Made by a program: the position numbers and the translations under genes. Below are positions 12,401-44,160 of a stretch of 64,000 bases of DNA, piece by piece; the first letter of the stretch is position 1, and every line of letters begins with the position of its first letter. The DNA lies in contig OZ004613.1 of the NCBI GenBank assembly GCA_963924565.1, forward strand, positions 21,700,001 to 21,764,000, given 5' to 3'. The notes under the pieces are model-generated. The model saw nothing but the letters and a program-made list of their open reading frames with translations, did not search any database and was not told where the DNA came from. Origin of the DNA: Ascidiella aspersa (lineage: Eukaryota).

Positions 12401-15400
12401 CAAGGTTTTACGCCATTTTGAACACACGAACTATGGGTGAGCTTCATGTCACAATTTTAACAAATAAAAGCAACGGCCTACCGTAAAGTGTCATGCCTTG
12501 TGTCGCGTCCTAAAAACGCCCGGTATAACGACCGTCGACCACTCATGTCATATTCATGATTATTTTAAACGAAGGGTTGTGTGCAAAATAAACGGCTCTG
12601 TATATTGCGTGTAACGTTTAAAGTTTAAATTTACCACCAAACCTTTAATAAAACAGAAGCTTCACCAGTGGAATTATTAAGTTGGTTGACCTATAATACG
12701 ATAGAGGGCCTAAAGTAAAATAACACACTTAAATATATGATAGACCGTTCGACAATTTTATATTTGCTTTGTAATCCATACTGACCAGCTATGATGAATC
12801 CATTTGCGTCGGTAAAACCATTGAAGTAATCGCACTGCGGAGTCTCGCCAGTAAACAGCAGACAAAATTCAGCGGGTACTTTCGATTTTTCGCACAAACA
12901 TTCGTCGGAGAAGTCACCGCAATCCAAAATTCCGTCGCAAACTTGAAAAGTCGAAATGATCTGCAAACAGGTTATGGTTATGGTTTATTGTTTTTCGATT
13001 TTGTATTCGGTAGGATTTACAAAATTAAATTAGGGAAACATTTTGATATAGAAAAATATCCGATTTTTCTTAAATTAGGATTTGTAGCAACTGAATTTAT
13101 TATACTCGAGTGCATCGTATATACATGTTCCAAGTATATTTTTCCAAAGTATTGTCGACCTACCAATAGAAAATCAAATTTATGAAAATATTAATCTGGT
13201 AAATATTGTACCCACAAATCCACCTGATTTATAAGTATCAAAAAAGCAATAGTAAAAGACATAATACGTGATACCTGCCCATCCTATAGTACACAACAAA
13301 CGTGCGGAATTACAAAAAAAACTAAAAATATCGCCTATAATACTTACTCCGTAACTATTTTTTTAATAAGCAAAGCGCATTGATGTAACAAAGCACCACT
13401 TAATTTATCACAAAGAACTAAATACAAGTTATAACGCAACAGCAACAATGCGGTAGCCTTAGAAGACTAATAATAGTGTGCGCAATATTAATATTTCATT
13501 GGGATGAATTGATACAAAGTCAAAATGCCAATGATCCCGTTCGAAATTACGCAATGACTACATGACGGAGGTTTTGTGGCCAAAAAATAGGTGTCACACA
13601 GACGCTGGCCCAAGTTCACAGACCGTGGCCCACGGGCCGCGTTTGTCTTAGTCCTGGGGTTCTTAACCAGGGGTACGTGTACCCCTTGGTGGTACGAAGC
13701 ACCAAAGCCGGGGGTACGACATACAGTGTGAAATTATATGCGCTCTTTAAGCATACTTGTGAAGAATGTGTTATTTACGAAAAGTAACAACGCATATAGT
13801 ATCAGTAAATTGACTGATTGTTTGTGTGTCGTAAATATTGTTGAACTGATTGTATTTAAATAGTTAAACCCCTAATGATTTTCATGCCATCAAAGCTATA
13901 GAAGAAAAACTTACAGGGATTACTCTTTTCACACAAACAGTCCAGTGACTTAATTCAGTAATCCGTCGTATACCTTCGACTTGTCCAAGCACTGGAAGCA
14001 GCTCCCGGTGAGTCGGCCGGCCGCGTCGAAGCACAAATCGGCGCCGTCGGCGCACTGGGCCACCCCGTCCCGTAGGTTGGTCTGCGGCAGTATGCACGGC
14101 ACGCCGTTGGCCGACTTGAGGGCACATTTTAATCCGGGGCCGGAAAAGCTTTCGTCCGACTGGTCGGGACAGTTGAAGTAGCCGTCGCACATCTCGCTCA
14201 ACTTAACACACGTCGTTCCGTCGGCGCAGCGCACAGCTTCAGAGCTGTTGCAGTACGTGGTGCCGCCGCCAGATACGGTAGGGCTGTAGGAGACGCAAAA
14301 TATGTTAGCTAAACTCCAACAAAGGCCACCGCAGTTTTGAGGATGTGAATAATAGGTATACCAGCAACACTTTTACCCAAAATATTTCTGCTAAAAATTA
14401 TACAAAATTGTAAAGACAAACAATAAAAATGACAATATCTTGTTTTAATCAATAGAGTTTTTCGAATTCAATTGGCAGAAAATGAAATATAATTTGGCTA
14501 CGTACCACCTGGCGTTGCTCTATAAATATTTTCACGTACACATGAATTTTAAGGTGAAAGAGTAAACGATATTGAGCGAAAACTTGACAAAATGCCTTAA
14601 CACCTGCATAGCTTTTGTGTAACACAAAGACTAAATTCGGCTTGTGTGCTCTTTCTGCATATGCTCACATGTTTTGCTCAAGCATGGAACAATCTTTAGA
14701 AGGACAGCGTTTTGGAGTATTTATTTATGACAAATCGATTTGAACCTGCTCATTGCTAAAAATAATGCGTTGCCTATAACCCGCCCTACAGTAAATCTTT
14801 GACGTCGAATGCAACTCAAAGACAATGTCTTTACAAGCAAAGCGTTTGGAATTTTTATTTCCCAATCAACACAATATTTTATTAAACAGTGAAGGCCAAT
14901 TAACATTTGACTAAAATATTATGTTAATATCCGGGAAAAAAGCAATACCTACTTCATAATGTCGGGGTTTAAGCAATTCCATTCGTCCGCTCCGTCTTTG
15001 CAGTCAGTTATATTATCGCACACGAAAGATTGGGGTACGAACTGCCCACCACCACAGGCGAATTGACTAAAAACAGTTTTATGTATAATATTAGATGGCC
15101 TTACAGCATCTGCTGTAATGCATTAAAGAGATTGCGAGATTACAAGCTGATTTTTACAAAAAGGTATTCATTAGTGTTGTAATGGCTTTACGTCAATGAC
15201 TTGACTTGAATGCATTTTAGTCGCTGTTTACAAATTACGTGAATTGACTGTCGTTTCGGTAAAATGACTTCATTTGACTTAGGTCTTTTGGACAAATGAC
15301 TCGACTTGGACTTATGTTAGTGAGTCCAATAACTTGGGTTGCAATTTAGTGTTTCATTTACCATTTTTTTTTATAAAATTAAGCGGTTTATCTTTATTTT

Positions 15401-19647: not shown

Positions 19648-21351
19648 TCGGGTCAGACCGTGATATTACAGATAATACACGACCGTCTGGGCACGACCGT
19701 TTGACGAATTTCTACCAAGCCTGTTGCATTGAACGAGAGGTGATATCTTCGTTTGTAAACGATTCACCACAGGCGAAATCTACTCCTTTGACAAAGCAAT
19801 TTTCATCTTTAAAAAAGTTGGATATAACGTACAAGGACTAAAACATTGGGTCGTCGTTAGTAGGCAACTGTGTAAAATTTCCTTGTAACAAACTCGAAAA
19901 TTAGGCTAGCACATATAACTCGTTTATTTTAGTCGGTTTCTCTTTCAAGTGACTCGACAGACGATGATATTGGTTATATATTATTATCAGAATGGAAGAT
20001 TTTTATAGAAAAAAACAAAAATTTTAATTACCAGCAACGAAAACCACACCGTCAATAACTAACTACTTGGACGATTATCCGTTAAACCTAAAATGCTGGA
20101 AATTAAAAAACTAAATTTTGACATTTTACGTGTACAATGATTTAACCGGGGTGGTCCAAACCCAGGCCCGACATCATTATTCATGGCCCGCGAAGCACTG
20201 TTGAATTATTGTAATGCGTATAGTTGAGGATCAGCAATCATACTGCAATTGTTTGGTTATGATTATATTTTTTTTTCGGTTACACTATTAAATAAACCAG
20301 ATTACTATCGCTTATCAAGTTCGAATTCAGGGGGTGACAAAGAACGCCTTATTTTTGTGATGTATTAGACCGGTTTGAAAGTCGCACTACGTCCTATATG
20401 GGACTTTTTAAAATGGTTGTTTTGCGAACTTATAAGTTATATTTGCTTTCCGTCTTTAATATGAGCATAACATAAAAATACAGCCCAATATAAATTACTA
20501 TTTCCGCCCCTTCAAAGTAAATGAACGATAAAATATGCCGCGCTTCTGGAAAGTATTGTTTTACAGCAGTGGTTCTCAACCGGGGTGCCCTGGCACTCTA
20601 TAGGGTGCCATTTTTGACGCTCAAGGGTGCCAAAAGATATTTCAAATTCTTTAGGATTTAAATTTTTGCTCTAATAATAAGCTACTTTTGACTACCGGGG
20701 AACGCATTTTTGGTTTTCGAGGATATGCAAATCTCTTAAAAATGCCTCTATTAACAAAATACAAAAACAACAGCCATTCAAATATGTTCATTTTCAAGAA
20801 AAACAAGATGCTGATTATTTAAGAAAATCGTTGGGAACCAGTAACAGTTTAATTGAAATACAAGGTAAACATTTAAAACAAGTTGAACTAAACGAGAAAT
20901 ACAAAAAGTTTATTATATAGTCTTTTGTGAAATATTTGTTTATATTTCCTTAGATCATTAGATCAACCAAAACAAAAAATCAATCCGTACAGTAATCTGG
21001 CCGCGATCGTCAGTTCTTACAAAAAAAGAAAAAAAAATGGTTAACCTGGGATGAACTATGAATTAGTTACCAAACTCCTGATATAGAGGTAACATTTTAT
21101 AACAATGACGAAAAACTAATTTACTGTTGTTGTTTATCCAACTAACAACCGAATTATCTGATCAGCACATTAGTTTTATTCTTTTTTTTATGTCAAAATT
21201 TTTGTAGAGCATTACAGTTTACTGCAGTTCAAGGCTAAAAAAAACACTATATTGAAAAACAAATTTAGGAACACTAAACACGGATCTGTTGATTATCTTC
21301 AGTAGAAAGAGAGTGGCCCAAATAATAGATAAAAGATTCATTCTTTTATTA

Positions 21352-21389
21352 GCAAACGTTTCGGCAATTTCTTTTGCCATCATCAGTGC
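21352..21389 (-). ncRNA. Second identical hammerhead in the inverted pLTR
   Basis: Exact reverse complement of 22340-22377. Confidence 0.8.
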
Positions 21390-21412
21390 AGTAAGTGAGA
21401 CTAAGATAAAAA

Positions 21413-22086
21413 AAGTGCAACTTGTGCGTACACTTATATCACGCGCGTACAAGATTGCCAGCTCGTATGCCAAGATGCACAACGAGTTCCGGAATATCAC
21501 TAATATCCTACTGAAGAATGGCTACCCCATCAATTCAATTGATGCCAACATCAAGTCCTTCCTCCATCGTTTACACTGTGACACGACGGTGAAAGAACCT
21601 ATGGAGAATGCTTTGCGATATATTGCCATAAAACTTGTTTATCTAGGCAATATCAACCACCGCATCAAGAAGGATTTGTCGCGGTTCGTTCTCCGGACCA
21701 CGGAGGGAAAAGTACGTCTCCGGGTAATCGACCTACCGCAAAAGTTGTCAGGACAGTTCTGCAGCATAAAAGACCGACAAAAGCCGTTAAATCAATGCAG
21801 TGTCGTATATCGCCTGAATTGTTCATGCGGCCATTCTTATATCGGCCAGACACGACGTAACCTTCGAACCCGTATGCATGAACACCAGCGTTCGGCGTCC
21901 TCCGAAGTTTGTAAACATTTGCACAGCAATCCTAACCACCGAGTGGACTTCACTTCCCCAGAGATTTTGGGCTCGGCACGAGACCGCTACCGCCTCCTTC
22001 TGCTGGAGTCGCTGCTTATACAGCAGCACAAGCCCGCTCTCAATGTTGACACGGTCTCAGTCCCCCTGTATTTGTTTAATACTTAA
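21413..22086 (+). CDS. C-terminal part of a Penelope-like polyprotein: RT C-terminal/linker region plus GIY-YIG endonuclease (RT core missing)
   Basis: LISRAYKI..., NGYP, VVYRLNCSCGHSYIGQTRRNLRTRMHEH, HLHSNPNH and LESLLIQQHKPALN. The first about 41 codons of the called ORF come from the inverted pLTR. Confidence 0.88.
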
Positions 22087-22710: not shown

Positions 22711-23067
22711 GATTTATGGCTCATTAAGTTTCGTAAAAGCCACAAATAAAATTATATTGCTATTGCCTCGGCATAAAGACATTCATACATATGTTTCCAG
22801 TGGATGTGTGAGATGGTTCATTCTGTCCGGTATTCGATCGCTGATTGGCGGATCTACTTCGATAGGTCAATCTACACACGCGCAAGACGGAGTTACGTCA
22901 CAACTCACGTTCACATATGCTTTCCCGATGCTTCACGCTCGGTCGCGCGCCAAACCCCCCACCCCGAAATGTTCTCTTGTAGACTCGACGGATAGAGCGA
23001 GCGTTATGGATAGAAATAGCGTACGGCCCCTTCCTTAAAAGTGTCTCGAGACGCCTTCAAACACATC
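22711..23067. repeat. GC-richer interspersed block of about 360-420 bp, copy 1 of 4 (others about 33883-34305, 41972-42395, 52970-53390)
   Basis: Direct sequence similarity. The reading frames are not conserved between copies. Confidence 0.85.
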
Positions 23068-23835
23068 CATTTACCCATCATTTTAACTTATTGAGGTCGC
23101 ATTCCGACTCATAGTTTTAGTCAAGTTTCGGTTATATTCCGACGTTGACATTAAATAATTAAATTACACAAGCAAGTGTTCATTTCCGCATTCAAGACAG
23201 TGTCAAAATTTGAAACAATTGGCTTGAAAAACGGAGATTCTACAGTTTCGAAAACCGCCGGTAAAACCCTTGGGACAGTCCTGTTTTATTACAGCTAACA
23301 CGAAACCCATGACTTACATGATCGATAGTTCTAATATGGATCATCTGGAAAAGACAAATGGTTCGTGACAGTGGAGGTTAGTTTCAGCTCACGAAACCTA
23401 ATTTTCGTGGCGGAGCGAAAAACCCAAAAAACTCGGATGACGATGGTTGAGCGGAACTGTCGGAAGAAACACTGCTTAATGTCTTGACTTATTGATCCTT
23501 TGGCAGCGAAATCCGAACAGAAAACCGCCGGATCAATTTTACCGCTAAAACCCAATAACTTGTGGATAACAAGGGTTTAAGTTGTTGAAAGAAGGTAAAT
23601 TTTAATATTTTTGATAAATTAATCTATCCGTTTATTAAATGAATCTATCCAATTAAACCAAGTAGGCCTAAAGAACCTTTTAAAGGTCAAACTTTTATAT
23701 AATTTGTCGGATTACGAAACTGCTTTAGAAAATACTTCTATAACAGGAGAAAATTATATATACACAAAACCCTGCCTAAACTTCTAAACTAGAAATATCT
23801 AGCATTTAAGCAATTGAACTTCTCTCAGTCTAAAC

Positions 23836-25607: not shown

Positions 25608-26154
25608 ATTTATTTTGTTAATAACGCTCTAATGCTTTCATCAACTCAATTTATCGCCTTGAACGTATTTAGTCTTTTTTCTTATATTCAGTATACTCGT
25701 TAATACAAGAGTAATTTTGAGTGTAATTTTTAAGGCCTTACCAAATGTGGATGACGTGTAAAACACCTTGTGTGTTTTCTCGTCGGTTTTTTGGGGGGAT
25801 TTTCTGGCACTTTTCCCGTGATGTATTAAGTATCAACCAAAAAATTATGTTGCACTTAGTTTGAGGTTTACACACCAAACGTACATACAAATGCTATATT
25901 TTGTAACGAAAATATCACAATAAGAGTAACGCAATAGTGTGCGGTGTGAACTTTAAATAAAATCGAATGACAAATGCTTGTTTTTCGTCGTCTCCCTAAT
26001 TCTCTAATAAAGAACCTATACCGACATAAATATATATATAAAATTTATTAAAAAAGTCATGAAATACAAAATAATAAACATTTAAGCGTCTTTTCGGCGC
26101 CGGCCGAATGGTTGTGATCCTTGCGATCACATTGTCTTTAGAGAAATATATCAC

Positions 26155-29100
26155 TCAAAACATGAGTGGATCGACTTGCATTTGACTAGGGATATTGCAA
26201 GTGTGCAGCCAAGCTTCCACCTCCTGTTCTTCTGCGTCAGTCATATTGTATAGTTGCGGGGTTCGATCGCACAAATGGCGGATATCTTCGTTTGTAATCA
26301 GTGGCAGGTCGTCGGTAAATCCGTCAACGAAATCCAGCAGTTGTTGTTCCAGATCAAAAAAGCTGGCATCGTCTGGCTGTAAATCAAGTAAGAGTTTAAC
26401 ACAATACAAAATATTGAATAAGAACTAATCAATGAACATGTTTTACGTTTATTTTTCCTAACCGCCGTGCACCACCGGAAACGCATGGGACGAGGTTGAA
26501 AGGTTCCGCCAGTTCCTTTATTTCATCCAGGAAATCCACCTCTTCAAAAATTATTCTTCTCATCCTAGTTGGCTTTCTCATCTTGCCGACGACCGAGGAT
26601 GAGGTGCAGCGATGCTCTGGATCATCTTGAATCCTGAACAACTTCTCCCTTGTCAAGGCTCTCTGCATGTTTGCCATCCAATCTTTCTCTTTTTTCTCAT
26701 CGATTTTTGGTGCATCATGAAAAGTTGGAGACTCGGAAATCGGAGACGACTTATTCTTGGGCACCATTTTAATCGCATCACTCAAGTCTTTCCGTGTAAT
26801 CTGATGATTGGATCCACAACGCTTGGACACCGGTCGTTCTAACTTGCTTGGCTGTCGCAGCTTTGACTGGTTCTTTACCACAATTTGAGCCTTGTGATAA
26901 ATCGGCGCAAGGAGTTTCGAGGAAGAATCAACTTTGTGTGGTGCCTTAAGTTTTGTAGGTGGACAAAGTTTAGAAGGAAAACCTTCCGGTGCTTTTCGAG
27001 AGGTGGGTGCAGCTGTCAACTGAGAAGTGCTTACTTTTATCGCTGTCTTGATTGTGCTTGGTGTGCGCAATTTGGAGTGACATCCAGCAGCAGTAGGTTT
27101 TTTTGTCTTAGGTGTCTCCCCAAGATTTGACGGAATGGAAGACATATATTTTGTTGATTTTTTGGATCTTGCCTTCATCGCCAGCCGCTGTGCGTCTTCT
27201 TTCTCCTGCTCTGCCAACTCCTCTTGGTAGTAACGCTCCCAGTCTTCTTCTGTGGGGGCCTGGCGAACGTGTTTTTTCTTTGGTAGTTGATTAATGGCTT
27301 TCATAATGTCTTCAACTACAAGAAGTGTATCTTTGCTCGTTGTATCTCTGAGATTACAGAAGGAATTTATGTCCTGTCTTTTGCAATATGCCTTCTGTGC
27401 CATTCGCTGTGCGTCTTCTTTTGCCTGTTCCGCCAACTCCTCTTGGTAATACCTCTCCCAATCTTCTTCGGTGGGAGTTGTTCCAACGCTTTCTTCATTG
27501 GGCAATTTGTTAATTGTCTTTATGATATCGTTATTGCTGAATTTTGGAATTTTTACAAAAGGGTGCTTCCTTTTGGACCATTTCTGAAGCCAATATTCAT
27601 GTTCAGGATCAAGGAATCCTCCCAGTTCATCTGATCCTGGATAGCTTGTGACGACAACATGGGACTTACTAAGTACTGGGCGCAGTATTTTTGCCACTAC
27701 GGAAGATTTGTCAGTTTTATTTACTTTCTTCGAAGTACCAGCCCTCGCAGGAAGAGTAGTAGTTTGTGTTCCTTTGTTGAACTTTGATCTGGGTTTTAGC
27801 GCCGGCAACATTCGAACAGTTCCAAAAATAGTTTGGGTGAATGTGGTTGTGCTTTGTCGTTTTTGTAGGGTTCCATTGTCCGATGGTAGTACATTATCCG
27901 GTTGAGTTTGAGTTGTTTGTGTGCTTACAGGCGAACTAACGACTGGTACAGTCTGGGTGGAAAGAGTGATACCAACAGTATTGGAAGTCTGAGTAGACAT
28001 TGACGCTGAGAGCATGGGACGTTGGAAGGTCTGAGTTGAAGTCGACACAGCAAGTGAACTTTTCGAGTCATGTCCAATAGTTTGAGTGAAAACAGGGGCG
28101 GTTGTCGAAATAGAGGTCTGTGTGGATGCGGGTTTGTCAACAGATTGGGAAGTCTGGGTTGGAACTGACTTGAGGATCGGATTAACCGTTTGGATACGGG
28201 CGGGCATGAAGCATTTTTTGATGGTCTGTGTTGGAATTGGCGTTGTGACAAACTGAAAGGTTTGGCTTCCGACGGATAGGGATTGTGCTCTTACTGAGTT
28301 AATCGTCTGGGTTGAGCAGGTTTGAGTAATTGGGCGTTTTACAGAGGATTTGGCCGGTTGAATCGTGCAATAAATGAAGACCTGCTGCGGTGATTTAGAC
28401 ACGGCCTGGATAGTTGGGCTGCTCTGTGCTGAACATAGGGGGAGAATCGGCGAACCTACAGGCGATGGGGTTAAGACATCCTGTACCCTAATCTTCTTTA
28501 CTTTAGTCAGAAGAGCTTTAGCCTTGGTCAAGACATTCCTTTCCAAGTGCGCAAGGAATATTTCAAACATGTCGGAGGTGATGATGAAATGTACGCGTGG
28601 TCCATTGGTCGGAAACCCTGTTTGAAGGAACACAACCATATCATCAGGTAACAGGAACGGTTCGAATGGTAATTTGAGATAAGGTTTCGCAATGGACTTC
28701 ACGGCGACATTTGGTAGACCTATAAATACACAACGATGGGTTAAAAAGGTGTACAACTTAGCCCAAGGCAGCAATCAATATAAAATCCCACAGCAATTAC
28801 CTCGTAATCCTATATTTTCGAATTTCTTTCTTGCCGGAATGCAAATTGTCAGCAAATTATCGTTGTTTGGGTTGCTTGAAATCTTTGTGAAAAAATATTG
28901 CATGCACAAATTAACAAACTTAGAAATAGACACTTACAGGTAACAAAAATATGGTATTTATACATTGAAAGCTTAGTCATTACAATGGCTTACGCAGAAA
29001 CGAAAAAAGGGCATTACTAAGGGTTATAGTTCTTTTAAAATTAAAATGAATGTTTGCTTGGTTTATAAATGTAGCATTTTCCGAATAAAGCATGTTAATT

Positions 29101-31082
29101 CGCAGAAAATTCTGTCATTAAAAACAGGACTTTTACAATATGTAGAGGTATTTGAGACAGAAGGGCGACGTTACATTTTTCCACCACTTTTTACAAGCCG
29201 ACGTTATGATTTTGCTTGTAGTTTGTGTTTGTATTGTCATACCTTATATGAAATGAGGCTCATAGGTTAAAACAGTCGTATATCCTATAGTACAGTGGTC
29301 GGCAAATTTATTTGTCGCGGCCCAAAATACTCTTTTTAAAGCTATTGAAGGCCCGCTACGTAAAACAAGTACAAAACAGGGCGAATCCAGGATATTTGTT
29401 TTGAGTTAGAGGCACTAGAATGACGTCACAAAATTTTGCCATGAAATAATTGTTCTTAGAAATACCTGTTGTATTGAACGAACTCGTTCGCAAATAAGAA
29501 GCTAAAATCCAGGTGGCGAAACGTTTACCTTAGACCAGCGGTTCTCAGCCAGTGGGCCATAAGAACATTTGAGGTGGGCAACAGACCGATTTAGAAAAGT
29601 TAGATTTAGTTTCTTTGGTGTCACTATATTTAATTTTACAGGAATAATGGGTTGGGGAGGACTTAAAAAGTAATGCAAAATTATTGTCCAGCCGCAAGTA
29701 TCTCACTAATGCAGGGTTGAATTAATAATCTGTTTTGAAATATGTTCTGCTGTGTTTTGTTCTAAACCTATTTTACAGTTTTTTCTGTCAAAAATATGTA
29801 TTGGGCATATTTGCAACGTAAATGAGCCACGAAAGAAAAAAGGTTGAGAACCGCTGCCTTAGACGTATTAATGCATAAAAGATTAAAACCATAGCATTTC
29901 CACAGCGGAATGGCGGCAGCCGCAGTCACGTAAAAGTTCGAACGAAACACATAAAATGATTACATCATGTAAATCTTGTAGTGAAAGCTGGATAAATGTT
30001 ACTCACGATACTATAGCAATATTACAATGGTAAATAAAAAAATACATTAACTAGATAAATGTTGGTAGAAATTGTATTTTGTAGGGAGTCTAAGTCCACA
30101 CAGCGTTATGGTTGTGGACACCAAGAAAGGGTGAAATATTACATGGCGCCTTGATGCCGAAAACGATGTCAAATACTATAAAACGATAATATACGCACGA
30201 ATCGCAAAGAAAATTTGCGATTACATATAGTTCAAGTTGAAAAATATATTTGACAGGCCCTCACAGTGCCTTATTTACCACGCAGGCCTGAACCACGGTG
30301 AGACAATATAATAATTCTTGGCAACACGTAGCCAAATACAATACAATATATGCACAGCATTCACGCGGCTCACAACTACATGATAAAACAATAAAACATA
30401 GCTCGCGGCCTGCGGCCCACATTTGGGCCGTGGCCCACTGTTTGCCGACCACTGTCCTAGTATAGATAACGTTTATTTTCAGTAGGCTATTTAGCAAACA
30501 TCGCATTCAAAATTTCAGCCGCATCCTACAACTTCAGAATTTTGTTTTTACTTTTTTTCAAGAAAACTTAAATTAATGCAGCTATTCCGATCAAACAACT
30601 GAAATACTGGTGTAACCTATGCTTTACCTTCAAGCCTTTTTCAAGTGCAGCGTTCCTCGACCGCACAATTCTTCGTAAAAAGGATACAAACCTAAACAAC
30701 GTTGCAAAAAAACAACGTTGTAAGATAGCTGTTAAAACTCAAGTGTGGATTATGTTAAATTACATGACTATCGAAACGAAAACACTTCAATAAATATAAA
30801 GTTTGTTAATTGGAAACATATTTACCTTTCCACGAGAACACATCCACCCTCGAAAAGTGCGATAAACATTATCACACTGACCAACAACATAGCGATGTTA
30901 AAAGCCGGGTTGGTCTTTAGTTTCTCCAATGAGTCAGGGACCATTGAATAGAAGCATTTCTGCAAAGCCTGGAAATCATTCGCAGGCTGCTCTGGTTCGA
31001 ACGTAATGCCGAACAACCCATTGAAGGGCGCAAACAGTTTCGAGTCGATTCGAATAAAAATCATAGCTTTCGCTTCTGCCAT
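26155..31082 (-). CDS. Orphan protein of about 965 aa with TQT (LC8-type) repeats, copy A; exons 31082-30826, 30691-30628, 28882-28801, 28719-26447, 26376-26155
   Basis: Four GT-AG introns with compatible phases (2,0,1,0) give 2898 nt. All splice sites and frames are preserved in copy B. AATAAA at 26049-26044. The last intron donor (GTAAAA) is the least certain. Confidence 0.75.
29293..30454. mobile_element. hAT MITE with nested MITE (29536-29856) in intron 2 of the TQT gene
   Basis: Outer TIR cagtggtcggcaaa / tttgccgaccactg, TSD tcctagta (exact in copy B). Inner TIR cagcggttctca / tgagaaccgctg, TSD ccttagac. Confidence 0.88.
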
Positions 31083-32141
31083 AAATTTCTGTCGTTCCCG
31101 ACAAAAGACATTGAACGAATATGACAAAAAATGCAAACAAAAACTTTGCCCTGGCCAAAATCCATTATTTCAATTCGCTTGTGACGTCACAGAATCTTTG
31201 AAAAACTACAGAATTTAACAAACTTTTCGGAAATTACAGTCAAATCTTTTACAAATACTGCATTAAAACAACCATTAAATTAAGAAAATAACACACCTAT
31301 AGTTTATTTTATTAGTATTACTTGTGCATAGCAAGATTAAAAGCATACAGGCACACGGAAAAAGCCGAGCGTCGTATCAAAAATCAAAATATTGGCACTT
31401 TGTTTGTAAAATTGGCATACGCGGGTACTATATTTTGTTTAGTTTTTTGTTGTTCTGTAGTTAATACCGACTGGTTAACACTATATAAAGTACACCTATA
31501 TATGCCATATGCAGCCAACCAAAGCTTTAAAACTGGTCCGCTAAACTTGTTACATTTTTTAATTCATAATGGTAGGTAGGACAGCAGCAATTATTTGCTA
31601 TAAACATTTACTTGACTAATGCCTTATGTAAGAGGCAGAAATACAGTTTAGACCAGTGGTTCAAAGTTGGCAATATCTCCCTTTTTTGCATTTACTATTT
31701 TTGCATTTACTATTTTTGCATTGAAGAAATACAACGCGTGTGCCAACATCACAAAATTCTGAGTTACATTCCTAAAAAAAAAACATTGTTAGTCAAAGTC
31801 TGGAAACAAGTACCAGGGAAATTTGGAGCAAAGTACCAGGGAAATTTGCATCAACCCTAATTGTTCTTTGTGCTTTGTAAAGCCCAATTAAGTCAAGTAT
31901 TAAATGTGTGAAAACAACTATCAATTAGTGAACAGTTTTTTTTTAATAACGGCATCACAAAACTACTTAATTTCCTGTTTCAACAATAGGGATAGTTTTA
32001 AAAGAGGTAAATACCTCAATCCAATTTACAATTGCCATTATAGGTTTTTTAAGCGTATGATCCGAAATATTTCCAAACACGTTTGCATAATTATACAGTT
32101 TACATCATAACATATTTCTATTTCAGCTTAGTGAGTTGACT

Positions 32142-33188: not shown

Positions 33189-34365
33189 TGTTCTGCGCAA
33201 AAACGTTACGCTTACATTTATTGTTAGTAAACCAAGTGGCTGTACTGAACCTGTACCACTGCAAAACATACAAAAAAATTAAATCAAATCCAAACTAATG
33301 TAATGTTTTTTTAATAAACTTACTAGAAGTTGTCTTGATGTTTTTTATCTTTTTTCACTACCTGAACTGTTGTCACAGCAATGAAATAAAACAAAGTCTA
33401 AAGGTCATAACCAATGTGCGATCGAGTTCACTGGTCAATAGTAGGTGTCTGAATCAGACCGTGACGGTGCACACGTAAATTTGATCACGTGACGTGAGTT
33501 TCAATTCATTTGTTTTGATGTCGTTGACCTGATCATCACTACTGTATTTGTTTTGTCACGTGACAAAAAGTGTTTAAGCCCAGAGAAAGTTGTCTACCGT
33601 CAATTCCTAACCTACTATTTTTTCGATAAATTCACCTTCTAAGGTGAAATCAAGTTGCGATATTATCACGCGTCGGGTATTGGTTACGACACGGTATTAT
33701 CGGACAAAACTTTAAAACGCATTTAGAACAACAAATAAACCAATATTTTGAAAAATCACAAAGAGAAACATTGGTTAACAATTACAATTACCAGAGAAGC
33801 TGTTTTGAGTAATATATGAGTTGAATATTTGTAAGTGTTCAGCAACCTTACCACGTCATTTGGCATAGGTGGGAATTATGGGGATTTATGGCTCATTGAA
33901 TTTCGTACAAGCCACAAATAAAATTATATTGCTATTGCCTCGACATAAAGACATTCATACAGATGTTCCCAATGGATGTGTGAGATGGTTCATTCTGTCC
34001 GGTATTCGATCGCTGATTGGCGGATCTACTTCGATAGGTGAATCTACACACGCGCAAGACGGACTTACGTCACAACGCACGTCCACATATGCTTTCCCGA
34101 TGCTTCGCGCTCGGTCGAGAGCCAACCCCCCACCCCGAAATGTTCTCTTGTAGACGCGATGGATAGAGCGAGCGTTATGGATAGGAATAGCGTACGGCCC
34201 CTTCCTTAAAAGTGTCTCGAGACGCCTTCAAACACATCCGAATGGGCACTGCACGTGGCAGTATGCCATTGTTTTATTTCGATAACCGTTTCGTTATTTT
34301 CTATTTCTGAAAGAGTAGACTATTACTTATTAAGGTTAAAAATATTATACATTATCCATTGCCCC

Positions 34366-36588: not shown

Positions 36589-39500
36589 TTACCAGTTTCC
36601 AAACTCTTCGTTCCAGTAGGAACTGTTTCCACTTTCTCTGTAGAAAAACACAGTAAAAGCAAGTTATGAATACCACATAGAACTAGAAATATCGGCAAAC
36701 AAAGTATACCATTACATATTTTGTCGCAGGGAAATTAGGGGAAAACATCCACGGATAAAGGTTTGTCATTACTTTATTTTGGCAAGCAATATTTTTATTG
36801 AAGAGTATTTTGGCAAAGCCGAGTTTCAAACGCACACAAACTGCACACATTAGGTTACAGTTTCTCTAATCAAAAGACTGCAAGGTTTACTCCATAGTTG
36901 CGACAAATCCGCTCGGTCACCGTTGAATGCAAGCACGAGGTTTTACGCTGCGCAATGATAGAGGCAACCATCCGTAAACACGGAATGACATTACACATTA
37001 AAATGTTTTACCGACCTAAATATATTGGCGCTTAGAAAACGGGAGGTTACGGCACATTCTGAAAGTTAAACAAATGATAAACATTCTCCAGGCTGTGGAA
37101 TCAATAAAGGGAGTCAGCAGGTGGCCGATTTGATATTGACGTTATCTTATCAGCGGTTTTAATATCAGTTTCAAGTCCTGGTACAAATATAATTATTCCA
37201 CTAAGTTTGTGACAAGAGCATGTACTCTATCTATATAAGAGTGGTCTATTTACAACATAATTAAACTCAGCAACAACTCGACAAACCCATGTGTTTTAAA
37301 ATAATTTATACGACTTTTTCAATATCTATGGTACTACGAAAGAGACTAAACAATTACGAGAGGAATTCGCGTGGTAATTTACTGATTAAACGTATCACCC
37401 AATTTACCTAGGGTTAAAAATAAATATTTTTTTACCGACACAATATTTTTAGAGATAACGTCACAAAGTTGCGTCATAACGGGGCATTTTAAACAAGTAA
37501 CCATGTGAAGCCTAAGGTTGTTGTTCGATGTAGTGCACAAATATACATTTGAAGTATTAGTTTAATTGAAAAAGAACACGGCCTAGTAAAAAATAACATA
37601 CTTTTACCGGTGAGATGTACCTGCAAAAATGTTTATCCTGAAAAGTTTTACCCCGAACCAAAATTTTTGTCATTTAGGCCTAGAAAGTGCGTCAGGAATG
37701 ATACTTTTAAGATGGTAAGTTATTGCAAATGTCAAGGGTTAGAATATCACAGACTGGTTTTTGCGAATTGTTAAATTTAGGTCAAATACCTATACGAACG
37801 AGAAAACAACCAAACAAATATTCGACAGACATTACACGATTGGTTACCAGTCGTTTTCAGTCTTTTTGGTCTCGTTCGGTAATTCATGCAACACTCGTTT
37901 GCTACCAGACTGGATCAATTGCATTAATTCATTACTACCTACCGCTGATCGCAGGCCCGACGACGATCGTGGGGGTGTCCCCGGAATGCGTCAATCATTT
38001 CCCGGGGTCTCCCCTGTTCCACGGCCCTGCTCGTTGCCTGGCGGACCTCGTTCCTGCTGGGGAAACTCATACTGTCCTTCGGGCCGACTCGAGCTTGGAT
38101 AAGACTGACGCCTTTCCCGACTTGGTGCGCGGATTGAACGATTCCTTGGTGAAAACGTCGGGGTTCAGTTAATGCTGGTAGTGATTTGCAATGATATATG
38201 CCCAACGCCAGTCAATCTAACGGTTTGTTTGTAACAAACACAGATTTTTTTTCAGTTTGGCAATTATGTATTGCAAACTTCAAAAAGAATTGGATCAATG
38301 TGTTATGTTGAACATCATTTCAGACTGTCGTTACTTTTTGACGATGCTTTGCGGGGTTCAGTTACTGCTGGTATATAGTGATTTGCAATAGCTTATCCAT
38401 GAAGCCAGTCAATCTAACTGTGTATTTTTTTTTTAGTAATTCGTTTGCAACAACTACAGAAAACCGTTTCGAACTTTTTTCAGTTTGGTAAGTCGATATT
38501 GCAAGCTTTTAAATGAATTAGATCAATATATCATGACATGTTAGACATTATTTCAGATTGTTTCCGGTTATGTTATTCTCAATATCCTATTGTAACTCAC
38601 TCAAGGACAAAAACTACAGAATATTGACGCATCGAAAATTTACTTTAAAAAATTGTTCTTCCTGTAAGGAACTTCCCCGTAAGGTTTCATTTTGTCAACG
38701 GTACAAGAAGCTAAATTTCATAGCTAAAAAATAAAGTAGTTTTCATTCAATTGTTTAAATTTTGATTGTTTGTTTGAGGAGAAGTCGATATGTCATTTTA
38801 TAGCGCTATCCTAGCCAATTTTTAAACGGGGTGGGCAGAGCTCTTACACAATATTTACTTATGTATAGCAATTTGAATGGTTTCACTCTTTGCTTAGTGT
38901 TGATGTGTAGTTAAGTATATAAAAAAGTTGTTTAACGATTTTTCGATTTGCAAGTTTTACGCTACTATTTTTTATTAGTTATTTTGTGTAGGGGCCGTTT
39001 GAATTTTATTTGCTACTTTTTGCAACTGATTTAGGCTAAGTTTAGGAAAAACAAGCTGCTACATTTGATGGAGATGCAATATAGGGACTTACACAGTGGG
39101 TAGGCACCAGACTACGTATTTAAAGTATTAACGACTTTTGATATCAAATTGCCAACTTAAATAAACCATAAAAGTTATCGCACATCCCCACGTGATAACA
39201 GACTCGCGCCGGAGCTGCAGACATTTAAGCGAATCTGTACTGTTTTTACAGTATACCAGATCAGAACAACTGTTCTATAGTGGTGTTCATTCGGTAATGG
39301 ATATTATGGTTTAGTTTGAATAAGGGTTATTATATATAAAAAGGTCGTTTTAGAGCTAAAGACTCTGAAAATGTTACCAATCACTTCTTAAGGAGTTAGT
39401 CGCTTACAGAATTTCCCGTGGAAGCATTTGGCCCTTAGGCCAGAGTTTCCCAAACTTTTTTGGACCACGGACAACTATTTGTGAATCTGTTTTTTCGCGG

Positions 39501-40073
39501 ACTGCAATACAAAGTAAAAACAATTACAATCGAATTTTATTTATTTACAAAAGCTGACAACATCAAACTTTTGCGTAGGCGCTAGGCGCAACAAGTAAAA
39601 TTTACGATAGTGGATAGCAAAAGCTTTCGATATCATTAAGTTGTGAATAACTGTAGCATATATCTTTAAAAGGTTACGTACTGTACAACGTATATGTGTG
39701 ACTTTTTAATTTTTTGTCATATTGCAACAAACCACCTGTGTAGTCGTCGCGGACCACAGTTTGGGAAACCCTGCCTTAGGCTACTTACCTTTAATGGCTT
39801 TTCGCTAAAGTCCCTGTAGCGCCGATCAAAGTTCTTGTCCATGCTGCGTTCCAACTCATTCCAGTTTGGCGCTTCGCCTCGAAACTTCACCAATCCATTG
39901 CCTGGCTGGGCAGGTGTTGGCTTGGGCTCAATGGTAAAGCCCTGCTTGCGCCCTACTTTAAACTGGTGGGAAGTGTCGGGATGCCAGTCGTTCACCACCA
40001 GGTCGTGTATCTTGCTCTCCAGCTGGTTGCCGTCCAAGTTTCCCACGTCGTGCGATTTAACCCTTCTCGACAT
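36589..40073 (-). pseudogene. Frameshifted copy of the small orphan gene (exons 40073-39789, 38144-37943, 36637-36589)
   Basis: A 10-nt deletion (ggttggtcct, flanked by gtcct microhomology) relative to the copy at 45697-45706 gives TGA at 38069-38067. Confidence 0.55.
39441..39773. mobile_element. hAT MITE in intron 1 of the small orphan gene (internally deleted relative to 47084-47532)
   Basis: TIR cagagtttcccaaac / gtttgggaaaccctg; TSD ccttaggc. Confidence 0.9.
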
Positions 40074-41163
40074 GATGTGTTGCTTGTCTGTAAAGCTCTC
40101 GACAGTTTTAGGTTCGCAAACGCGATGAGATTTAATATAAAGGGGGGGCTGTAAATATCAACACAGGTGGTGAGGCATATCCTCAAAATAAATTTGATCA
40201 GCTCCTGTTTTTTTTATTTTATTCGGCACAGAAGTATAGGAGGAAATACCTGGCATTTGGCTGCTTATGCAAGCGGCGATCAGGCAAACAGACTAATACC
40301 GTTATTTTTGCTGTTATAATTACTCAGCGTTATTGTAAGAGGGATTTCGGAAAACCAAGCGCTATATTTCGAGCCCCAAAACATTAATTTCACAAATATC
40401 TAAATTAATTATTTTTTGTTGTAAAAAAATTCGAAATGAACTTTGGCTTTGTTTTTTGGGGGGTTTATAGACTTTTATGGGTTTTATTCAAAATTTTCGT
40501 AAGTGTTATATTAATCTAACAGAAAAACGGAAACCTGACAAAAAAATCTCAAAAAGCGAAAAATTGCCAAGAAAAATTAAAAAAAAAGCTTGAGAAAAAT
40601 TGCCACAAAAAGAGAAATTCAATGTACCAGCATGACCATTTATTGCATTTTTAACAAGCAGAGGCTTGTTAGAGTTTTTATTAGATTTGGCTTTTTTTCT
40701 CTCTTTTTGAGGCAAGTTTTTTTTGTTTTTGTTTTGACTATCTGGCAACCCTGAGTTGAATATGTCCAATCCGCATTTCTTTAGAGCTATCTTTTGTGGT
40801 TTGTGTGAGTACGACGGTGAGGATAATGGTAGGGTAACAACACGTACCCTTTTGAGAAAGTAAGGCAAATCAGTGGTCTATCAAGGACACTGCAGGATGC
40901 CCATGTGCTCAATTTGCATATTTTGCGTTATTAGCTTCTGGCATAGTGAATATACGAATTTAAAGAAGAAGTGATAAAATATTAGGCGTAAAACTACTTT
41001 GCATTATATTTTTGTTCATTTTTTATACAATACATTCCTTGAATTTATAGACCTTCGCGTTACACCTGATCAACGACAAATAAAGAAAATGCCACTGAAA
41101 AAGACTATGGTAACAATAGCAAATGATATAACCTTCTAAATATATATATAGCTTATACAAACT

Positions 41164-41358: not shown

Positions 41359-44160
41359 TGTTCTGCGCAAAAACATTAGGTTTACAGCTATTGTTGGTAA
41401 ACCAAGTGGCTGTACTGAAGCTGTACCACTGCAAAACATGCAAAAAAATTAAATAAAATCCAAACTAATGTAATATTTTTTTAATAAACTTACTAGCAGT
41501 TGTCTTGATGTTTTATATCTTTTTTCACTACCTGAACTGTGGTCACAGCAATGAAATAAAAAAAGTCTGAAGGTCATTAACAATGTGCGATCGGGTTCAC
41601 TGGTCAATAGTAGGTGTCTGAACCAGACCGTGACGGTGCACACGAAAATTTGATCACGTGACGCGAGTTTCAATTCATTTGTTTTTATGTCGTTGACCTG
41701 ATCATCACTACTGTATTTGTTTTGTCACGTGACAAGAAGTGTTTAAGCCCAGAAAAAGTTGTCTACCGTCAATTGCTAACCTACTATTTTTTCGATAAAT
41801 TCACCTATGGTGAAAATCAAGTTGCGATATTATCACGCGTCGGGTATTGGTTCCGATACGGTATTAAGAGTAATATATTAGTTGAATATTTGTTTTGAGT
41901 AATATATGAGTTGAATATTTGTAAGTTTTCAGCAACCTTACCACGTCGTTGGTATAGGTGGAAATTATGGGGATTTATGGCTCATTGAATTTCGTACAAG
42001 CCACAAATAATATTATATTGCGATTACCTCGGGATAAAGACATTCATACAGATGTTTCTAGTGGATGTATGAGATGGTTCATTCTGTCCGGTATTCCATC
42101 GCTGATTGGCGGATCTACTTCGATAGATGACTCTACACACGCGCTAGACGGAGTTACGTCATACAACGCACGTCCACAAATGCTTTCCCGATGCTTCGCG
42201 CTCGGTCGAGAGAGAACCCCCCACCCCGAAATGTTCTCTTGTAGACGCGATGGATAGAGCGAGCGTTATGGATAGGAATAGCGTACGGGCCCTTCCTTAA
42301 AAGTGTCTCGAGACGCCTTCAAACACATCCGAATGGGCACTGCACGTGGCAGTATGCCCTTGTTTTATTTCGATAACCGTTTCGTTATTTTCTATCTCTG
42401 CAAGAGTTGGCTATTACTTATGAAGGTTAAAAATATTATACATTATCCATTGCCCCCAGTGGCATATCCAGGGAGCGGGAGTTCTTACCCCTTTTTTGTA
42501 AGTGATATTATCGTTGTTTTTTCGTTTTTGTCATGGTTTAACAAACTGTTCGAAGCGGCGTGCTTTTTAAGTTATTGGGTCACGCGTCTTAATCTAATGC
42601 GAAACCAAAATCGAGCGCAAAACGCCATTTTTCGTCTTTTGTTTGGTCGACCGTAAACGCAGGATAGTTTTTCTCTTTCGTTGTTTGTTTAGGTTGACTG
42701 ATTAGCAAGTGTGTATATTCGACAATTGACAACGCTAAGTCAAACCTTCTTTCTTTTTTCCTCGCTAAAAAACGTCGAGTTATACGCAGTGTATGCTCCT
42801 CGCTGTTCGGTCTCTGCGCTAATATTCGATGTTGGTGTAACATCGACATTTGTTTAACTGAAGCAGATTCATAAAAGGAGGTATTATGGTGACTGTCGTG
42901 CGCGTTTTAAAGTCTCCATTTTTAAATAATGATGGTTAACGCAAAATTATGCTCTTTAAGCACACTCTAAGACCGCGTGCTAAGTGTTCAATGGACACAA
43001 CTTATTTCCCCTCAACCGCAGCTTGTAATTTAGCTGACCTTGGCACACAGCTCGGCGCAGATATTGCGCTAATCGTGGCATAATAACACCCGGAATAAAC
43101 GATCTTCGTTTAGTATTGCAGGTGGTAAAATACGTGCTTGTAATTTAGCGCTCGTTTCGTTTATGGAACTTAAAAAAAGCGCTGCTGATAGTCGAATTAT
43201 GTGTGATTCTACCACAATTAATCAGATTGCACAGCGTGGCTTCGCAGCTGGCGCCTGACAAGATTGTCGACGACGCAGGTGGTCGCTTTTGCTGGACGTA
43301 TTTGGCTGTTTCTGATTAGTTTTTTTTATCACGTCTTGTCATCACCATTCTATGACGTCATACTGTCACTGTTTTATGACGTCATTATTCATTAACGTCA
43401 GATGAAAAAATAGGGGAATTCCCCAAGTTGAAAATTCAGGACCCCCCTTTTTGATCTTCTGTTTACTCCCCTGATTGACCCCCCTGGAAAACTTTCTGCG
43501 GGCGCCCCTGCATGTGGTTGGCCTATTTTATCTTAGTCGGTTTCTCTTCCTACTGACTCGAAAGACGATGTTGATAATTATCAGAATGGAAGGTTTTTCG
43601 TGGAAAAACAAAAGCAAAAACACCTCGATCGGAACAAAATATCTTACTGCTTTGACCTTATAAAATAGTACTGATGTTTTAAAAATTCCTAAAGCTGTCC
43701 TATTTGTTGTTTTATTTAATACAACTGAGCTGCATACAATTTTGTAATTGAGAACCGTATTTGGGAAATAAACAACTTAAATGTGCTTTCAATCAGTGGT
43801 TTCTAACCTTGGGATTCCAAGGGGGTCGCAAGGGTTGTCTGGGAGTAGATATAGGGGAAACTAACACCAAAAAGCTATAATGTACCTTTGTGTTTGTTTC
43901 CGAAGCTTAGCTACGGTCAATTTTTTTTTCGGAGAATTACCCTGCAAAAACATCGTCAATTTTAAGAAAAGGGACATTTGTTTGCTATGTTTGTTTTTTT
44001 GTGTTTATTTCACAAATGTTTGGATGATGTTATATTTACAGGTAATTCCATATACAAGACAGAATCAGAAATGAAGCATAATGCTCAATTGGCATAATTT
44101 TACAATAAAAGTTAATGGGTTATATGGCTGGGAAGTCTGCTGTTTCCCCTTGTAGGTGGT

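Follow-up and report, generated by a model that had tools for sequence, protein, structure and literature searches.

A gene on the minus strand of the Ascidiella aspersa genome (positions 26155..31082 of the analysed window, a stretch of 64,000 nucleotides of contig OZ004613.1) is predicted to encode the long form of a previously undescribed, fast-turnover protein family. We give a probability of about 0.55 to the reading that this form is a single-pass membrane protein whose array of TQT motifs binds a row of LC8 dimers and so becomes a stiff stalk. A predicted helix at residues 61-84 would anchor the protein with the array side facing the cytosol, the row of LC8 dimers would zip two chains together, and the resulting stalk would keep the C-terminal domains at a distance from the membrane. 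The constant ends, that is, the anchor and a C-terminal domain binding some partner, would do the basic job of the family, and the ladder of motifs would set reach and dimer state.

The five-exon model of about 965 residues proposed in an earlier note on this DNA is borne out by its GT-AG joins, by splice sites across paralogues and by RNA depth: the minus-strand exons form one open frame of exactly 965 residues. Exon 1 (coding part, 30826..31082), which is common to all family forms, carries the N-terminal region and the hydrophobic helix and has an RNA depth of 36.7 (bin 30748-31031). Exon 2 (30628..30691, 64 nt; depth 27 at position 30661) encodes a basic stretch after the helix, and exon 3 (28801..28882, 82 nt) shows a depth of 33-41 inside and 0 at the neighbouring intron positions 28950, 29002 and 29033. 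Exon 4 (26447..28719, 2273 nt) encodes the long-form insert, the TQT array and the conserved core, its remaining parts being a second helical repeat, a basic Ser/Pro region and a basic helix. Exon 5 (26155..26376) encodes an acidic C-terminal domain that even the smallest member has and in which about 60 residues are conserved. Together, the two small exons have depths of 27-41 against 0-6 at adjacent intron positions, which is a depth signal and not a count of junction reads; their splice sites are retained in most of the 22 long copies, and exon 2 is 64 nt long in all 22 as well as in one short member (L058). A candidate polyadenylation signal about 105 nt past the stop (26044..26049, minus strand) is kept in nine of ten aligned copies. 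Stranded RNA covers the exons, and the transcription is attributable to the long-form subfamily. Because the reads carry the letter of the paralogues, not that of the window copy, at the diagnostic sites checked, the window copy may be silent. The window gene is a real gene.

This gene is one among dozens of paralogues spread over nine contigs. It had been described as an orphan, which holds in that no outside homologue was found but not in the sense of a solitary gene, as it represents the long form within a large, many-copy family. A second intact copy, 96% alike and with 12 TQT motifs, lies in the same window (58983..63924, minus strand). In total, 22 long copies were modelled, 11 of them intact, and dN/dS among the six intact long copies compared is 0.34-0.48; the long copies are under purifying selection. 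Relatives of about 160 and 390 residues have the same two ends, a hydrophobic helix at the N-terminus and an acidic domain at the C-terminus, without the array, so LC8 binding would be an add-on and not the core job of the family. The length series of about 160, about 390 and 965 residues keeps constant ends and, being unrooted, does not give a direction to array gain versus loss. The family is a large birth-and-death family in which the long form carries the array.

Eight near-identical long copies sit in one cluster, and the eight youngest copies multiplied together with 7SK RNA genes that lie head to head with them. The 7SK gene of the window (33974..34274, plus strand; Rfam RF00100, 49.7 bits with a cut-off of 35), which stands head to head with the gene, is part of the recently amplified unit. 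Such multiplication of 7SK genes is unusual against the single locus reported for the tunicate Didemnum (PMC5006418). An assembly artefact is unlikely, since the copies differ by 2-6% and their flanks differ, and a transposon or retrocopy origin was rejected because introns are kept and common sharp ends are lacking: the stretch of homology between two copies differs from pair to pair, running out between about 230 and 1090 nt upstream and between 120 and 3090 nt downstream. No recurrent transposase was found beside the copies, the long ORFs of 42 loci yielding, by eye, sporadic transposase-like or RT-like frames. SQV/VQV arrays at three loci (L083, L084, L095) fall outside the gene model, in short frames bounded by stops, and are probably a DNA repeat.

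Outside the array, the regions described earlier from sequence and composition (twin EEDW-type helical repeats, a basic Ser/Pro region and an acidic tail) are all present. A segment of about 80 residues (136-215; 28478..28717, minus strand, as for the following regions) is confined to long forms, with 38 matches in the genome and none in short loci. No source for it was found elsewhere; the single outside match, obtained by phmmer with residues 136-241 (P0003, E 7e-6), is spurious, being a bacterial DUF11 repeat protein reached by summing six weak stretches. The conserved core with the first helical repeat (residues 481-580; 27383..27682) is common to short members. The helical repeat, whose second unit here covers residues 600-655 (27158..27325), is single in those members. 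The basic Ser/Pro-rich region (residues 656-805; 26708..27157) is the least constrained part, with dN/dS of 0.40-1.18 across pairs; it has 28 K/R and 8 D/E in its 150 residues, compared with 2 K/R and 17 D/E in the 73 of the acidic tail. A proposed role as a microtubule scaffold found no support: the basic region has a single SxIP-like motif, at residue 661, and three of six diverged copies retain it. Family and structure searches with the C-terminal domain of about 60 residues gave no match and lent no support to a likeness to cyclic-nucleotide-binding helices that we had considered. Structure models of the core and of exon 1 were poor (pLDDT 59 and 53).

The TQT array occupies residues 261-460 (27743..28342, minus strand) and comprises 15 anchors, or at most 13 non-overlapping sites, of a likely LC8 ladder. 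The earlier motif count was confirmed, with 13 TQT (residues 266-452), one SQT (286) and one IQT (310); when the array region was shuffled 10,000 times, TQT appeared 0.97 times on average and never more than 6 times. The motifs had been said to lie mostly 12 residues apart, which is true of half of the spacings (7/14 for the 15 anchors; 4/12 for TQT alone) and untrue of the rest, which measure 14-25 residues or reflect overlapping motifs. An 8-residue motif followed by a linker of 4 residues accounts for a 12-residue spacing, and five such spacings in succession (286-346) are retained in diverged copies. No tandem DNA repeat was found under the array and the codons of its motifs are varied, so the motif is kept at the protein level. 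Proline occurs at positions -4 to -1 in 7/15 motifs. Proline at -4 to 0 of an LC8 motif is reported to be inhibitory (PMC3078936), and by eye none of the 62 rows of measured binders in DataSheet1 of PMC12057147, the part of that source used here, has proline at -5 to -1. The eight proline-free motifs look, by eye, like measured LC8 binders, and at least these probably bind LC8, genes for which were found in this genome. In the same data sheet, peptides of the mucins MUC3A and MUC4 bind LC8 in vitro, so that motif fit alone does not prove cellular use.

In a comparison of six diverged intact copies, which counts related copies as independent and defines anchors on the window copy, the anchor Gln (position 0) and the following Thr (+1) are variable at 3/30 positions, as opposed to 27/49 for other Gln and Thr of low-complexity regions (Fisher p 4.5e-5); for Gln taken separately the figures are 1/15 and 9/17. 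Position -1 is variable at 5/15, and its replacements (S, A, V, G or N) are close to the T/S/V/I range of the measured binders listed in DataSheet1 of PMC12057147. Two broken, distant paralogues agree: in L082, identity is 22/28 at Gln0 and Thr+1 versus 47/144 elsewhere, with the spacing of 11-12 kept, and in L079 it is 19/26 versus 71/156. An N-versus-S test comparing triads with linkers gave no significant difference (p 0.80), and the array region shows dN/dS values of 0.35-0.94 between pairs. Judged from these alignments, selective conservation of Gln and the following Thr is the pattern of an LC8 ligand, and the multivalent LC8 hub envisaged in the earlier note is best described as a likely, predicted LC8 client, given anchor-specific conservation that extends to L082 and L079.

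By analogy with KANK1, we consider it slightly better than an even chance that 4-residue linkers would let the weak, proline-bearing sites fill cooperatively; with all 13 sites occupied, the rod would then be no longer than about 45 nm, a length scaled from the roughly 53 nm given for 15 KANK1 dimers in the available part of 10.1101/2025.07.16.665182. The uneven motif quality (7/15 with proline), the half of the spacings that are not 12 and the high gene dosage implied by the cluster of eight near-identical long copies would also fit a looser association, in which a partly filled mixture would serve to dimerise or cluster the protein, or to sequester LC8, and no rigid rod would form. ASCIZ behaves in this manner, its mismatched linkers and affinities leading to low-occupancy mixtures (PMC5963919 and 10.1101/2025.07.16.665182, as far as available). 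We regard loose binding as unlikely here, since the run of five 12-residue spacings kept in diverged copies would be needless for a sponge, and since weak but even sites with short linkers make KANK1 cooperative (available part of 10.1101/2025.07.16.665182).

Upstream of the gene lies a conserved promoter cassette (31162..31192, minus strand), consisting of what we take to be a SOX-like box, in which one base is changed in the window copy, and a CRE-like site located about 107 nt ahead of the start codon. The CRE-like site is present in 30/32 members against a background of 9.8%, and the cassette occurs 149 times in the genome versus 11 for the reversed control. Among 20 other cassette sites, two are family members by profile and several more have a family-like leader by eye; none is accompanied by a recognisable testis gene, and germline expression was no longer read from the cassette. 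The intronless LC8 gene lacks a cassette site. It is a doubtful proposition that this is a germline-expressed, self-amplifying conflict family that makes one membrane anchor and one C-terminal effector in three lengths and has captured 7SK, its LC8-stiffened long form now expanding and acting as a gamete organelle tether or an LC8-titrating distorter.

The hydrophobic run noted earlier is present, with a best 19-residue Kyte-Doolittle mean of 2.51, and so is the basic stretch after it. For the predicted transmembrane helix (residues 61-84; 30831..30902, minus strand) the hydropathy is 2.5, the 19-residue mean is 2.0-2.6 in 15/15 exon-1 sequences, and a low-confidence structure model of exon 1 puts a helix at residues 59-83. 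Acidic residues outnumber basic ones before the helix in 14/15 exon-1 sequences; after it, the window protein has 7 K/R versus 2 D/E and the smallest member a strongly basic stretch. Hydropathy, charge and the positive-inside rule suggest that the helix probably crosses a membrane and leaves the long C-terminal part on the cytosolic side, which makes the membrane tethering raised as a possibility in the earlier note likely; for the compartment of the array (cytosol or nucleus), charge asymmetry across the helix flanks is the sole indicator. Alternatively, the hydrophobic helix might be folded away inside a small soluble domain at the N-terminus of a soluble or nuclear LC8 client. This would fit the presence of about 58 conserved residues ahead of the helix and of a conserved basic helix around residue 850, which may act as a nuclear signal; the hydropathy of all 15 sequences and the asymmetry of flanking charge make this alternative improbable.

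With the opposite topology, the array would be a mucin-like O-glycosylated stalk in the lumen or at the cell surface, and its TQT motifs would be incidental. Its composition (34% Ser/Thr, 8% Pro, from which disorder is also predicted), the five N-glycosylation sequons of the whole protein and the existence of mucin TQT peptides (DataSheet1 of PMC12057147, in part) are compatible with such a stalk. We consider it very unlikely, as Gln, which carries no O-glycan, is the best-kept residue, basic residues follow the helix and a DNA tandem repeat is absent. Highly improbable, finally, are SQ/TQ sites for ATM/ATR-type kinases read in phosphorylated form by FHA domains, as in MDC1: T or S precedes Q in 14/15 anchors and I, F or V stands at +2 in 8/15, but within the triad it is the would-be phosphosite (-1) that is conserved least, changing to I, V, A and G, +1, free in that pattern, is almost fixed, and +2 varies.

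No homologue outside this genome was found in a protein-database search that covered exon 4 and the core alignment, at longer and near lengths, or in metagenome and viral contigs; the ESM Atlas gave no usable match, and Pfam, PDB-sequence and fold searches gave nothing significant. In agreement with the lineage specificity suggested earlier, the family is likely lineage-restricted and is known so far only from this genome. The absence of C2H2 fingers stands, with no Pfam match on exons 1, 4 and 5 and inspection of exons 2-3 by eye. Orthologues of known LC8 clients would carry folded domains, namely ankyrin repeats in KANK, DUF1669 in FAM83D/Chica and a propeller in Nup159, and no significant Pfam, PDB-sequence or fold match to these was obtained. 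Literature listings and the beginnings of abstracts contained no description of the family, nor the combination of LC8, transmembrane, ascidian and dynein light chain.

Characterised proteins with more than 10 LC8 sites are few (ASCIZ with 11, KANK1 with about 15), and neither is an integral membrane protein according to the available parts of the sources. Here, one genome offers a natural series of members that carry the ladder or lack it on constant ends, together with decaying copies, in which ladder gain and loss, the cooperativity of proline-bearing sites and the setting of tether reach by LC8 can be studied. In evolutionary mode alone, the sequences being unrelated, the family resembles lineage-restricted copied genes such as the primate core-duplicon families NPIP and GOLGA, which are likewise copied with introns and promoter to many sites, have ragged ends and intact and broken copies, and vary in length through internal repeats. 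Nup159, a nucleoporin with a propeller and FG repeats, differs in having no membrane helix, and a sequence relation to it was not found. Its Dyn2-binding domain has five tandem QT sites with linkers of 4-5 residues and stacked LC8 dimers, and half of the spacings in our array match these short linkers (available parts of PMC5963919 and 10.1101/2025.07.16.665182). Human ASCIZ/ATMIN has, in the available part of PMC5963919, 11 TQT sites with uneven linkers and partial occupancy; many TQT sites in a disordered region, the disorder being predicted here, are common to both proteins, but ASCIZ is a zinc-finger transcription factor and the present protein has no zinc finger. In linker L2 of KANK1, about 15 individually weak LC8 sites are separated by 3-4 residues (10.1101/2025.07.16.665182, available part), so that a long disordered linker of weak sites connects an end close to the membrane with a distal binding domain, as proposed here, and its paralogue KANK2 lacks the LC8 region, as do the short members of our family. 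Whereas KANK1, as far as that source goes, is attached to the cortex through protein partners and has ankyrin repeats and non-canonical anchors, the Ascidiella protein has no known domain and would combine canonical TQT anchors with a predicted transmembrane helix of its own.

The TQT gene on the minus strand of the window is assembled from five exons (exon 1, 30826–31082; exon 2, 30628–30691; exon 3, 28801–28882; exon 4, 26447–28719; exon 5, 26155–26376) into a frame of 965 residues, with no internal stops and exclusively GT-AG introns, in agreement with the five-exon protein of about 965 residues proposed in the earlier note. The 13 TQT reported there are likewise all present, within residues 266–452, together with one SQT (286) and one IQT (310) as variants; 10,000 shuffled versions of the 199-residue array region contained 0.97 TQT on average and no more than 6. 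The description of these anchors as mostly 12 residues apart holds for 7 of the 14 spacings, five of them consecutive (286–346), but not for the other half. Because two anchor pairs overlap, no more than 13 sites could be occupied. No tandem repeat was detected by Tandem Repeats Finder in the DNA under the array, and the triad codons differ from one another.

The gene is not the single orphan it was taken for: a second copy lies 32.8 kb off inside the window, and further matches occur elsewhere in the genome (308.6 Mb, 75 contigs). The counts, which are matches and not copy numbers, are 55 for array-region DNA (on contigs 2–9), 73 for the exon 1 protein, 83 for the core and 43 for the C-terminal domain, and we estimate a family of about 50 or more loci. 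Among 22 long copies modelled from the best-matching places, 11 have an intact frame (about 962–968 residues, 10–13 TQT) and 11 carry stops, frameshifts or a missing exon. Whole-gene dN/dS in six intact long copies picked for divergence is 0.34–0.48, with its minimum in the helical repeats and its maximum in the Ser/Pro region. Family copies retain introns and promoter, and the ends of their shared flanks vary pair by pair, so they arose by duplication at the DNA level and neither as retrocopies nor as a transposon with fixed ends. A small membrane-protein gene adjoins two short members on different contigs (L056:8997–9575 and L058:1611–2219, in fetched genome stretches), which therefore were duplicated with it as a block. 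Homologues outside this genome were not found within the limits of the search tools, and the family may stand as lineage-specific, as had been suggested.

About 6% of RNA run X4 was read, and 1245 reads were placed at ≥90% likeness. First mates on the plus strand cover exon 4 at a depth of 13–41, versus 0–1.2 in the opposite direction, which indicates minus-strand RNA if the library is typically stranded; first-mate depth is 36.7 in exon 1 and 0–0.4 in the flanks. The two small exons have depths of 27–41 and nearby intron positions 0–6; of 73 joints, none of the 15 listed came from the RNA run. At 13 exonic sites picked among 40 listed differences the RNA agrees with the majority of close paralogues, and at 9 of these the window copy's letter occurs in no read, so expression is shown for the subfamily rather than for the window copy.

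A CRE-like site lies 74–134 nt upstream of the start in 30 of 32 family members (background 9.8%), usually followed by a SOX-like box; in the window this cassette spans 31162–31192. The pair occurs at 149 places in the genome, compared with 11 for the control. In mouse, CREM and SOX30 drive spermatid genes, and by analogy the cassette hints at germline expression of the family, a reading for which 20 other cassette sites gave no support. Among the 149 places is a tandem array of about 25 cassette copies with family-like leader sequence on contig 3 (12.24–12.38 Mb); no family exon was detected in the one stretch of it examined.

By Rfam, the window contains 7SK RNA genes at three places (33974–34274, 42150–42365 and 53061–53359), and there is also a partial copy (22802–23068). 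Most of the 36 genomic 7SK matches fall on contig 7 at 21.50–21.81 Mb, where about 25 copies, 92–99% alike, lie interspersed among the eight youngest genes of the long form; others are on contig 7 (20.57 Mb), contig 4 (16.38 Mb) and contig 9 (16.75 Mb). For the tunicate Didemnum one 7SK locus is reported (PMC5006418). All eight long copies of the contig 7 cluster have a 7SK copy about 2–4 kb upstream, head to head, as does only the contig 9 copy among the older dispersed ones. Elsewhere in the window, an LDLa-repeat G-protein-coupled receptor gene (6405–14372, minus strand) matches a cluster of mostly chordate proteins, in keeping with a host that is probably a sea squirt. A 276-codon frame (21256–22086), with no significant Pfam match, resembles the C-terminus of a Penelope-type retroelement and has a GIY-YIG-like motif. 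Two frames of about 150 codons (37711–38172 and 39717–40157, the second without a Pfam match; copies at 45329 and 47476) belong to the duplicated block and recur four times at 21.74–21.81 Mb of contig 7. Transposase frames, which we take to be hAT-like, occur near two short members (L065:7102–8910, 603 codons, and L064:2548–4021).

Distant members lack the array; their similarity covers exon 1, a core with a single helical repeat, the basic helix and the C-terminal domain. The only short member modelled in full (L058) has five exons with a 64-nt exon 2 and unchanged intron phases, is 364–387 residues long according to which exon 3 acceptor is used, and carries one TQV-type motif. The smallest (L108:2780–3427; contig 2, about 14.009 Mb), of some 160 residues, apparently consists, as read by eye, of exon 1, exon 2 and the C-terminal exon, giving only a predicted membrane helix, a basic stretch and the C-terminal domain. 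Specific to the long form, between these constant ends, are some 80 unique residues, the TQT array, the second of the helical repeats and the basic Ser/Pro region; a divergent contig 2 member has only the last two TQT motifs. Long members separate from short and smallest ones with bootstrap 100 in a tree of exon 1 and the C-terminal domain, and the two clades receive 78 and 95 in another, neither tree having a safe root. Judging by the smallest member, anchor and C-terminal domain may form the basic unit, with the middle acting as a variable spacer between them.

All 15 exon-1 sequences have a best 19-residue hydropathy of 2.0–2.6, and in every one except the window copy (14/15) the segment before the helix holds more acidic than basic residues. 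Behind the helix the window protein has 7 K/R and 2 D/E, and L108 a strongly basic run. Under the positive-inside rule for membrane-protein topology, this charge pattern predicts a cytosolic location for the long part and an external one for the short N-terminus. Structure models of core and exon 1 were poor.

Anchor conservation was compared in six diverged copies, in tests that treat copies as independent and ignore shared ancestry. The central Gln and the following Thr vary at 3 of 30 positions, versus 27 of 49 for other Gln/Thr of low-complexity regions (p 4.5e-5), and position −1 at 5 of 15; variable columns number 8 of 45 in triads and 63 of 161 in linkers (p 0.008), and the ratio of amino-acid to silent change does not differ significantly between the two (p 0.80). 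In two distant broken paralogues anchor identity is 22/28 and 19/26, compared with 33% and 46% elsewhere, and one of them keeps an 11–12 register with different linkers. A fixed Gln and +1 with a flexible −1 fits the 62 measured LC8 motifs tabulated in PMC12057147 (DataSheet1). The genome encodes a canonical, intron-bearing LC8 (in stretch L051) and an intronless paralogue (L050:1495–1767, 90 residues, possibly a retrocopy).

The main difficulty for LC8 binding is proline at −4 to −1 in 7 of the 15 array motifs; by eye, none of the 62 rows of that data sheet has proline at −5 to −1. Proline is reported to disrupt LC8 binding, an effect that multimerisation may offset (PMC3078936). The anchors of the seven proline-bearing motifs are kept as well as the others, so these motifs either work as weak, cooperative sites in the manner of KANK1 or serve another reader.

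We favour, with a probability of about 0.55, a model in which the membrane helix would fix the protein in place and LC8 dimers would bind along two parallel chains, extending the linker to at most about 45 nm with 13 sites filled, scaled from the roughly 53 nm for 15 LC8 dimers given in the KANK1 preprint (10.1101/2025.07.16.665182). This would display the helical core and C-terminal domain in dimeric form, at a defined distance. Loose, ASCIZ-like binding of LC8 by the array (compare PMC5963919) is possible but distinctly less probable, and a soluble protein is unlikely. A mucin-like protein, more doubtful still, does not fit the fixed Gln and +1 with flexible −1, nor do kinase sites, the least plausible reading of the array. 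The microtubule scaffold of the earlier note finds no support beyond the basic Ser/Pro composition; only 3 of 6 copies retain the single SxIP-like motif of that region.

The TQT genes constitute a real family, undescribed in the literature searched, and the favoured LC8-extended membrane linker would be a variation on a known mechanism. The protein is not a member of the ASCIZ, KANK1 or Nup159 families. Its working mode would be most like that of KANK1 and Nup159, both rod-forming, whose linkers, according to the KANK1 preprint, measure 3–5 residues: the 12-residue period of the array corresponds to an 8-residue motif plus a linker within this range.
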